This document shows positions 15,393 to 16,562 of a stretch of DNA of 17,868 nucleotides, piece by piece. The translations under genes were made by a program, and so were the position numbers. The stretch's first letter is position 1. Every line of letters begins with the position of its first letter. Below the pieces are notes generated by a model. That model did no database searches and had not been told where the DNA came from. It saw only the letters and a program-made list of their open reading frames with translations. The stretch comes from a virus (Duplodnaviria; Heunggongvirae; Uroviricota; Caudoviricetes), in IMG/VR virus record IMGVR_UViG_2617271049_000015, positions 1 through 17,868 of that record; one strand, written 5' to 3'.

Positions 15393-16154
15393 GATACGGT
15401 GTGGAGCGGGGAATATGATGAATGGGGCAACCTGCTGAATAAGGAGAACCCGCATCACCTGTACCAGCCATACCGTCTGCCAGGGCAGCAGTACGATGAG
15501 GAGTCGGGGCTGTACTATAACCGGAACCGGTACTACGATCCGTTGCAGGGGAGATATATTACTCAGGACCCGATGGGGTTGAAAGGGGGATGGAATTTAT
15601 ATCAGTATCCTTTAAATCCACTACAACAAATTGACCCTATGGGATTATTGCAGACTTGGGATGATGCCAGATCTGGAGCATGTACGGGGGGAGTTTGTGG
15701 TGTTCTTTCACGTATAATAGGACCAAGTAAATTTGATAGTACTGCAGATGCTGCGTTAGATGCTTTGAAAGAAACGCAGAATAGATCTCTATGTAATGAT
15801 ATGGAATACTCTGGTATTGTCTGTAAAGATACTAATGGAAAATATTTTGCATCTAAGGCAGAAACTGATAATTTAAGAAAGGAGTCATATCCTCTGAAAA
15901 GAAAATGTCCCACAGGTACAGATAGAGTTGCTGCTTATCATACTCACGGTGCAGATAGTCATGGCGATTATGTTGATGAATTTTTTTCAAGTAGCGATAA
16001 AAATCTTGTAAGAAGTAAAGATAATAATCTTGAAGCATTTTATCTCGCAACACCTGATGGACGATTTGAGGCACTTAATAATAAAGGAGAATATATTTTT
16101 ATCAGAAATAGTGTCCCGGGATTGAGTTCAGTATGCATACCGTATCATGATTAA
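15393..16154 (+). CDS. Rhs protein 3' end (5'-truncated at the gap): conserved core terminus with DPxGL motif, then a ~168 aa Cys-rich C-terminal toxin domain of unrecognised family
   Basis: [10 protein letters not shown]...[32 protein letters not shown] is the Rhs core end (DPMGL at 15633-15647); the following domain has 6 Cys and an [10 protein letters not shown] cluster. The supplied ORF start at 15315 lies before the gap and is not part of the gene. Confidence 0.8.
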
Positions 16155-16193
16155 TTTTAATGCTTTTATTAGTGGGGCCTATAAGGAGATTCA

Positions 16194-16562
16194 ATGAAAT
16201 ATAGTTCAACATTTTCGATGCTTTCATTTTTTATACTATTTGCCTGTAATGAGACAGCTGTTTACGGTTCTGATGAAAACATTATTTTTATGAGGTATGT
16301 GGAAAAATTACATTTAGATAAATACTCTGTTAAAAATACGGTAAAAACTGAAACAATGGCGATACAATTAGCTGAAATATATGTTAGGTATCGCTATGGC
16401 GAACGGATTGCAGAAGAAGAAAAACCATATTTAATTACGGAACTACCAGATAGTTGGGTTGTTGAGGGAGCAAAGTTACCTTATGAAGTTGCGGGTGGTG
16501 TATTTATTATAGAAATTAATAAGAAAAATGGATGTGTTTTGAATTTCCTACATAGTAAATAA
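16194..16562 (+). CDS. Putative Rhs immunity protein (122 aa) with signal peptide and lipobox-like Cys
   Basis: AAGGAG SD 5 nt upstream; N-terminus [18 protein letters not shown]; sits directly 3' of the toxin domain; stop overlaps the next ATG (TAATG). Confidence 0.65.

Follow-up and report, generated by a model that had tools for sequence, protein, structure and literature searches.

The window analyzed here, a stretch of 17,868 nucleotides, ends in part of an Rhs element in which a cysteine-rich toxin tip is followed by the gene for a small protein with a signal-like N terminus. The first-pass annotation could assign the tip to no recognized toxin family and took its partner for a lipoprotein-like immunity protein, proposing that the toxin acts in the periplasm or on the envelope. 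The locus raises two questions: what kind of enzyme the tip is, and in which compartment of a target cell it works.

Identity and genomic context of the locus

The genes and motifs of the rhs element described below lie on the + strand. The last 84 codons of an Rhs core (positions 15396 to 15647) matched positions 1177 to 1261 of the NCBIfam RHS_core model (E = 3.6e-48) as well as TIGR03696 (E = 8.6e-24), and they carry the aspartyl-autoprotease motif DPxGL twice, as DPMGL at 15567 to 15581 and again at 15633 to 15647, 22 residues apart. Directly behind the second copy begins the C-terminal tip of 168 amino acids (15648 to 16154, with the coding sequence at 15648 to 16151 and the stop codon at 16152 to 16154). 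GC makes up 50% of the core tail but only 36% of the tip and 31% of the following gene, ybbC, a drop that commonly marks Rhs tips acquired by swapping. RHS core, double DPxGL motif and variable low-GC tip together thus mark the gene as an Rhs polymorphic toxin. The tip contains exactly six cysteines and an 11-residue segment that the first-pass annotation had largely singled out; residues 1 to 24 form a short helical linker bearing C12 and C17, and residues ∼25 to 160 constitute the DUF4329/Tox-JAB-2 domain. In these respects (DPMGL boundary, tip of ∼168 residues, six cysteines, a ten-residue cluster and a partner of 122 residues) our analysis agreed with the earlier description of coordinates and content.

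On its 5' side the Rhs core is truncated by a run of 10 N (15383 to 15392), an assembly or scaffold gap, and the stretch singled out in the first-pass annotation begins at the very next base. Positions 1 to 15382 match the E. coli region from intD to ompT, that is, a DLP12-like prophage from its integrase through ompT. Since this region is not a neighbor of rhsD in E. coli genomes, the N run is a join introduced by scaffolding at the repetitive Rhs core. A listed open reading frame of 279 amino acids (15315 to 16154) was rejected as a real gene because it crosses the gap, its first 22 codons coming from the unrelated ompT-region contig.

Comparison of the 1169-bp stretch with E. coli chromosomes gave DNA identities of up to 98.6%, and full-length matches were present in 1856 of 5426 complete genomes. 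The annotation under these matches was rhsD plus ybbC, the latter listed as "YbbC/YhhH family protein" or "NTF2 fold immunity protein." The gene order in the reference is ybbP, rhsD, ybbC, an orphan rhs fragment and an H-repeat gene. The intact reference rhsD measures 4281 bp; of its core the window retains only the 3' tail, and the part of the rhs element that is kept is the portion downstream of rhsD. Behind ybbC there follows an orphan, ylbH-like rhs fragment (16563 to 17259), consisting of a frameshifted core tail (in frame 2 and then frame 1) and a different tip of 138 amino acids for which a Pfam search gave no match. This fragment belongs to the same rhs element, lies outside the toxin/immunity pair and is annotated in E. 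coli as a partial RHS core pseudogene. The element is closed by the start of an H-repeat/ISAs1-type transposase-like gene (17750 to 17868; Pfam DDE_Tnp_1_assoc, E = 1.3e-10), which is cut by the end of the window and whose protein is also found downstream of rhsB in E. coli (locus L005).

E. coli K-12 carries the same locus (rhsD, b0497, and ybbC, b0498), with 98 to 99% DNA identity across the tip and ybbC and with the same ylbH-like orphan and H-repeat gene downstream. The window differs from K-12 in lacking most of the Rhs core at the 10-N gap and in being joined to the ompT/DLP12-like region instead of ybbP. At the protein level, the tip shares 100% identity with its counterpart in E. coli ECDA1023, and YbbC of the window has Thr6 where most E. 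coli strains have Ile. That the stretch represents, by its sequence, the 3' end of the E. coli polymorphic-toxin gene rhsD together with its cognate immunity gene ybbC can be regarded as practically certain.

A divergent JAB-like domain in the RhsD tip

The tip matched the Pfam family DUF4329 (PF14220) with 128.7 bits against a cutoff of 28.6 (E = 1.3e-37), covering positions 2 to 114 of the 116 in the profile, and the 122-residue partner matched Imm-NTF2-2 (PF15631) with 91.3 bits against a cutoff of 26 (E = 4.4e-26), over the full profile from 1 to 68. The toxin can therefore no longer be called one of unrecognized family. Zhang, Iyer, Aravind et al. (2012; PMC3482391) equated their Tox-JAB-2 with Pfam DUF4329, gave E, H[ST]H, S and D as its conserved residues, and associated it with RHS repeats and with immunity proteins of "Imm-NTF2 family 2," which they noted for E. 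coli. In our case the scores for both Pfam models far exceed the thresholds, and the signature residues and the Rhs N-terminal context are present as well. The element, the two families and their pairing were thus already known, E. coli being the type case in the 2012 catalogue. The same pairing also occurs at E. coli rhsB and in E. albertii, Salmonella and Rahnella, which extends Imm-NTF2-2 beyond the "E. coli only" distribution given in 2012.

Homologue searches with a word index brought up little besides E. coli fragments, and the family became visible through an exhaustive search over 1.84 billion representative proteins, which yielded 254 clusters at E ≤ 0.001. Most matches were C-terminal tips of Rhs/YD-repeat proteins; a minority were short proteins standing on their own that carry a signal peptide or a lipobox. 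Conservation was counted over 112 domains drawn from the 254 representative clusters, a filtered set with less than 60% identity between members. Here Glu53 (codon at 15804 to 15806), the predicted general base of a JAMM-type site, was conserved in 100% of domains. The predicted zinc ligands His98 and His100, which flank Thr99 (15939 to 15947), were conserved in 97% each and Thr99 in 89%, and they fall at the C-terminal end of the strand formed by residues 92 to 99. The segment from Ser114 to Asp117 (15987 to 15998), corresponding to the JAMM S-x-x-D, lies at the start of helix 115 to 122, with Ser114 conserved in 98% and Asp117, the predicted third zinc ligand, in 100%. E53, H98-T99-H100, S114 and D117 thus reproduce the published family signature.

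The spacing of these residues departs from the canonical H-x-H-x7-S-x2-D: RhsD has 13 residues and most of its relatives 12 between the HxH and the serine, D107 of RhsD being a gap in 74% of relatives. Order and secondary-structure placement are nevertheless kept, and the family is a divergent branch rather than a canonical JAMM. Its fold pointed in the same direction. An AlphaFold2 model of the tip built from 13 sequences (pLDDT 80.9, pTM 0.80) shows the predicted alpha+beta fold of JAB/MPN domains, and set against a list of JAB structures it gave values of 8.3 for BRCC36, 8.1 for PfJAMM1, 7.7 for AfJAMM, 7.4 for CBASS Cap3, 6.9 for both RadC and the AMSH-like protease SST2, 6.7 for both Rpn11 and BilC, and 6.6 for CSN5. 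Direct searches were less telling. Foldseek found nothing in the PDB at E ≤ 0.001, its best match being a bacterial JAB deubiquitinase at E = 0.016. A PDB sequence search with the family profile likewise found none (best E = 0.4), and the Prok-JAB HMM gave subthreshold matches in 7 of 34 family members, the best at E = 1.5e-4.

Taken together, sequence and model suggest that the tip is a divergent, zinc-hydrolase-like domain of JAB fold with an intact predicted E...HxH...SxxD site, and we consider it highly probable that it is an active JAMM-type metallohydrolase. Identity to the JAMM/MPN+ isopeptidases (AfJAMM, PfJAMM1, Rpn11, BRCC36, AMSH, CBASS Cap3 and BilC) is only 8 to 19%, and these enzymes have a spacer of 7 between HxH and SxxD as opposed to 13 in the RhsD tip. 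Unlike them, the tip would be extracytoplasmic and cysteine-paired and is part of an Rhs toxin; a ubiquitin-like substrate is not expected. We also considered that the JAB domain might be a mere pretoxin or processing protease; this was rejected, as a tip of 168 residues is too short to accommodate a second domain.

Probable export of the immunity protein and the site of toxin action

The gene ybbC (16194 to 16562; 122 codons for amino acids) begins 39 nt after the toxin stop codon, and its Imm-NTF2-2 domain occupies residues 55 to 122. A strong Shine-Dalgarno sequence, AAGGAG (16183 to 16188), lies 5 nt upstream of the ATG and supports a translation start at Met1, by which the hydrophobic N terminus belongs to YbbC. 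The first 18 residues contain one lysine, a hydrophobic stretch and Cys18 in the context L-F-A-C. Our heuristic assigned a tripartite signal peptide to residues 1 to 25 (16194 to 16268), with MKYSST as the n-region, an h-region of 11 residues, L-F-A-C18, and VYG|SD as an alternative site for signal peptidase I (SPase I). In an AlphaFold2 model built from five sequences (pLDDT 66), residues 1 to 25 are unstructured, with pLDDT below 50, and the predicted fold begins at residue 26.

To place this signal in its family, we compared seven Imm-NTF2-2 proteins encoded downstream of DUF4329 tips: YbbC of the window, two types of YhhH (type 1 from E. coli locus L005 and type 2, P0029), and the homologues from S. 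enterica (P0032, the gene of which starts before an orphan DUF4329 tip has ended), S. salamae (L010), E. albertii (L006) and Rahnella (L011). Their mature parts are 30 to 50% identical and their N termini cannot be aligned. All seven nevertheless showed a net-positive n-region, an h-region of 9 to 14 residues with a mean Kyte-Doolittle value of 2.4 to 3.2, and small residues at -3 and -1, as called by the heuristic. On this sequence evidence the immunity protein is very likely exported, the signal being conserved in kind and not in sequence. The proposal of an exported partner has thus held, as far as sequence can tell.

The lipoprotein part of that proposal fared less well. Cys18 does stand in L-F-A-C, but its Phe at -2 is atypical and falls outside the strict lipobox [LVI][ASTVI][GAS]C; the context fits the looser PROSITE-type rule. 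The cysteine is confined to the YbbC clade and absent from the six other homologues, which have SPase I-type sites where YbbC has G25|S26. The lipoprotein reading of YbbC is the weakest part of the earlier proposal.

The cysteines of the toxin also point to an oxidizing compartment. Across the family all 53 domains with C59 also had C87 and all 16 with C12 also had C17, and the enterobacterial clade has six cysteines. Many DUF4329 members have odd cysteine counts, and disulfides would not be universal in the family. A profile search for further loci recovered seven, a thin sample of distant immunity partners. Three Rhs-DUF4329 loci of Verrucomicrobia had downstream open reading frames with Sec-type signals, and a marine contig coding for a secreted DUF4329 protein had two further signal-bearing frames downstream. 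Because of the exported immunity protein, the unstructured residues 1 to 25 of YbbC, the covarying cysteines and the exported neighbors, we favor an oxidizing, extracytoplasmic workplace. That the toxin acts in the periplasm is accordingly rather probable, and to this extent the earlier suggestion of periplasmic or envelope action is supported.

This reading has to be weighed against the one prevailing in the literature. Zhang et al. (2012; PMC3482391) proposed that toxin JAB domains may be nucleases rather than peptidases, by analogy with a proposal made for RadC and on the grounds that these domains do not have the ubiquitin-tail tunnel residues; they were silent on the location of the immunity protein, whereas the exported partner and paired cysteines seen here suggest a periplasmic target. 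Later surveys of EHEC, STEC and Salmonella effectors label DUF4329 an "RNase" without data. In our search of the literature on DUF4329, Tox-JAB-2, YbbC, YhhH and RhsD, no experiment on any member was found, including any nuclease assay, and the label is conjecture only, resting in turn on the RadC conjecture. Ma et al. 2017 is reportedly the paper that others cite for it. The fold itself, JAB within the deaminase-like superfold, does not place the tip in a known cytoplasm-acting nuclease or deaminase family, an assignment that would have spoken against envelope action.

Were the tip nonetheless a nuclease, cutting RNA or DNA in the target cytoplasm in the manner proposed for RadC, the N terminus of YbbC would be irrelevant or a membrane tether. 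Such an activity would suit the general observation that most characterized Rhs tips act in the cytoplasm. One Salmonella survey, moreover, lists as the neighbor of a 1593-residue PAAR-Rhs-DUF4329 protein a CdiI-domain protein with neither signal peptide nor transmembrane segment; the Salmonella loci that we retrieved pair DUF4329 tips with signal-bearing Imm-NTF2-2 proteins. The export signal in all seven Imm-NTF2-2 proteins compared argues against a cytoplasmic target, since by the positive-inside rule the immunity domain lies on the periplasmic side of the membrane and would be unable to neutralize a cytoplasmic nuclease, and the paired cysteines and secreted stand-alone relatives likewise suit an oxidizing compartment. 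We therefore regard a cytoplasmic nuclease as improbable.

An equally improbable variant keeps the toxin outside the cytoplasm and directs it against an inner-membrane or lipid-linked substrate, such as lipid II or undecaprenyl-linked precursors (compare colicin M), with YbbC as an inner-membrane lipoprotein or signal-anchored guard. Cys18 in its lipobox-like context, with Asn at +2, would fit this arrangement; the SPase I-type sites of the homologues, which lack the cysteine, would not. Nor does the structural likeness of YbbC to the colicin M immunity protein Cmi speak for it: more than 100 generic cystatin/NTF2 matches were obtained, of which Cmi is one, and Cmi has no sequence relation to YbbC and counteracts an unrelated toxin.

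Least probable of all, we think, is that the rhsD tip and ybbC are inert remnants of a nonfunctional rhs element whose motifs merely reflect recent ancestry: many E. coli strains, including K-12, have no T6SS, the window has only a 3' tail behind an assembly gap, the adjoining rhs pieces are frameshifted orphans, and rhsD is often interrupted by IS1 or IS903 in the best-matching genomes, but both open reading frames are intact with a good Shine-Dalgarno sequence, the catalytic motif is kept at 97 to 100% among domains so divergent from one another, and the immunity partner has stayed beside the toxin in all four enterobacterial groups (E. coli, E. albertii, Salmonella and Rahnella). The explanation that we prefer on balance, with some confidence, is that the rhsD tip is a periplasmic metallohydrolase toxin and the exported YbbC its immunity protein.

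Proposed mode of action and implications

Rhs effectors ride the spike of a type VI secretion system (T6SS), enclose their tip in a YD-repeat shell and self-cleave at DPxGL. RhsD-type family members P0053 and P0056 have PAAR-like N termini and, on the strength of these and of what is known of Rhs proteins in general, RhsD would be a PAAR-Rhs cargo of the T6SS. It may cleave itself at DPMGL|L and release the 168-residue domain into the periplasm of a neighboring cell, where the domain would become oxidized, with C12-C17, C59-C87 and possibly C49-C163 as candidate disulfides. In this form it could be a zinc-dependent amidohydrolase that cuts an amide or isopeptide bond in the envelope. Since isopeptidase activity is what JAMM enzymes have, the candidate targets are the stem-peptide links of peptidoglycan or the link between Lpp and peptidoglycan (Lys-mDAP of Braun's lipoprotein), although peptidoglycan or Lpp as the substrate is a tentative guess. 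Kin would be protected by periplasmic YbbC, which would bind and block the toxin, whether as a soluble protein cut at G25|S26 or with a lipid anchor on Cys18. The moderate YbbC model resembles the protease inhibitors cystatin, PepSY propeptides, latexin and fetuin as well as Cmi, which resides in the periplasm; these are generic matches to a common fold and suggestive only. In the reducing cytoplasm of the producer the toxin would be enclosed by the Rhs shell and presumably without activity, so that cytoplasmic immunity would not be needed.

Such a system would resemble Tse1/Tsi1, Tae4/Tai4 and Ssp1/Rap1a, which are periplasm-acting T6SS amidase effectors with periplasmic immunity proteins. 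By analogy, the resemblance would lie in a small hydrolase toxin, a signal-bearing immunity protein encoded directly downstream and a likely dependence on disulfides. Effectors of the Tse1, Tae4 and Ssp1 type are papain-like NlpC/P60 cysteine amidases carried by Hcp or VgrG. Unlike these, the RhsD tip is a predicted JAB-fold metalloenzyme fused to an Rhs cage.

At its most far-reaching, this leads to a doubtful possibility, namely that DUF4329/Tox-JAB-2 is the first extracytoplasmic JAB/JAMM enzyme, a disulfide-stabilized zinc amidase or isopeptidase injected into the periplasm by way of Rhs and the T6SS and held in check by a cystatin-like exported inhibitor. The envelope bonds that we would propose for it, no less speculatively, are the peptidoglycan cross-link, the gamma-D-Glu-mDAP bond and the Lys-mDAP bond of Braun's lipoprotein.

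The locus stands on every textbook map of E. coli K-12 and both of its families are in Pfam; no new element is described here. What deserves to be kept is that the "RNase" label for DUF4329 tips, which goes back to a conjecture of 2012, is at odds with an exported immunity protein and paired cysteines. If the periplasmic reading is true, surveys of T6SS effectors in E. coli and Salmonella, through which the name "RNase" is at present being passed on, would have to give it up. A periplasmic JAMM-type hydrolase would then be a new enzyme class among envelope-targeting T6SS effectors and Rhs cargo, and the JAB superfamily would gain its first extracytoplasmic activity unrelated to ubiquitin.

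A scaffold join upstream of the rhsD tail

A gap of 10 N at window positions 15383-15392 has a DLP12-like prophage segment on one side and the rhsD tail on the other. The prophage segment (1-15382) carries an integrase gene, quuD, a porin gene, the essD/rrrD lysis genes, tail fibre genes and, on the minus strand, ompT (14086-15039). Since this segment and rhsD do not adjoin in E. coli references, we conclude that the N gap marks where the scaffold was joined, at the repetitive Rhs core. An ORF of 279 aa that spans the gap (15315-16154) was rejected as a real gene, its 5' end being an artefact.

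Orphan rhs fragment and H-repeat gene downstream of ybbC

The immunity gene ybbC is followed by a ylbH-like orphan rhs fragment (16563-17259), which is frameshifted in the core tail near 16665-16680. Its tip after the DPLGL motif comprises 138 aa, for which no match was found in Pfam, and contains a Gly/Ala-rich hydrophobic stretch of 25 residues that could be a membrane-inserting toxin segment. At the window end, which truncates it, lies the start of an H-repeat/ISAs1-type transposase-like gene (17750-17868; DDE_Tnp_1_assoc, E = 1.3e-10). In E. coli, the same H-repeat/ISAs1-type protein is encoded after rhsB-yhhH (L005, 3949-5085).

Doubtful database relatives of the RhsD tip

One 4-kb contig, CASFSC010000074.1 (L004), is binned in a MAG of "uncultured Alistipes sp.", and its RhsD tip matches the E. 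coli protein at 100% identity; the contig's presence in this bin is almost certainly E. coli contamination. Two near-identical tips from Logan assemblies (P0039 and P0040) differ from that of the window almost exclusively by H->Y, P->L/F, A->V, T->I and S->F substitutions, which correspond to C->T at the DNA level. Both look as if they had been assembled from reads that were bisulfite-converted or deaminated in some other way, and are unsuitable for use as natural variants.

Immunity arrays, signal-bearing neighbours and stand-alone DUF4329 proteins

Imm-NTF2-2 genes of S. salamae (L010, 1-2970) and Rahnella (L011) lie in arrays that include further immunity genes (Imm58, DUF6258); in Salmonella they also adjoin a TseH-type peptidoglycan hydrolase effector. 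These arrays are typical orphan toxin/immunity islands.

In three Verrucomicrobia MAGs (L007, L008 and L009; about 2970-4165), an Rhs protein with a DUF4329-like tip is followed by an ORF of 300-390 aa. Each ORF product has a Sec-type signal peptide, and the mature part begins with the common sequence LPPGVPEPGLI(I/L)WGTVVN; these proteins may constitute a different, larger exported immunity family.

A stand-alone DUF4329 protein with a signal peptide is encoded on two independent metagenome contigs (L014 and L015, both 3001-3534), in each case directly downstream of genes for a LuxI-type autoinducer synthase and a histidine kinase/response regulator pair. Given that acyl-homoserine lactones contain an amide bond, this arrangement could be a hint that the DUF4329 family includes amidases acting on small molecules.
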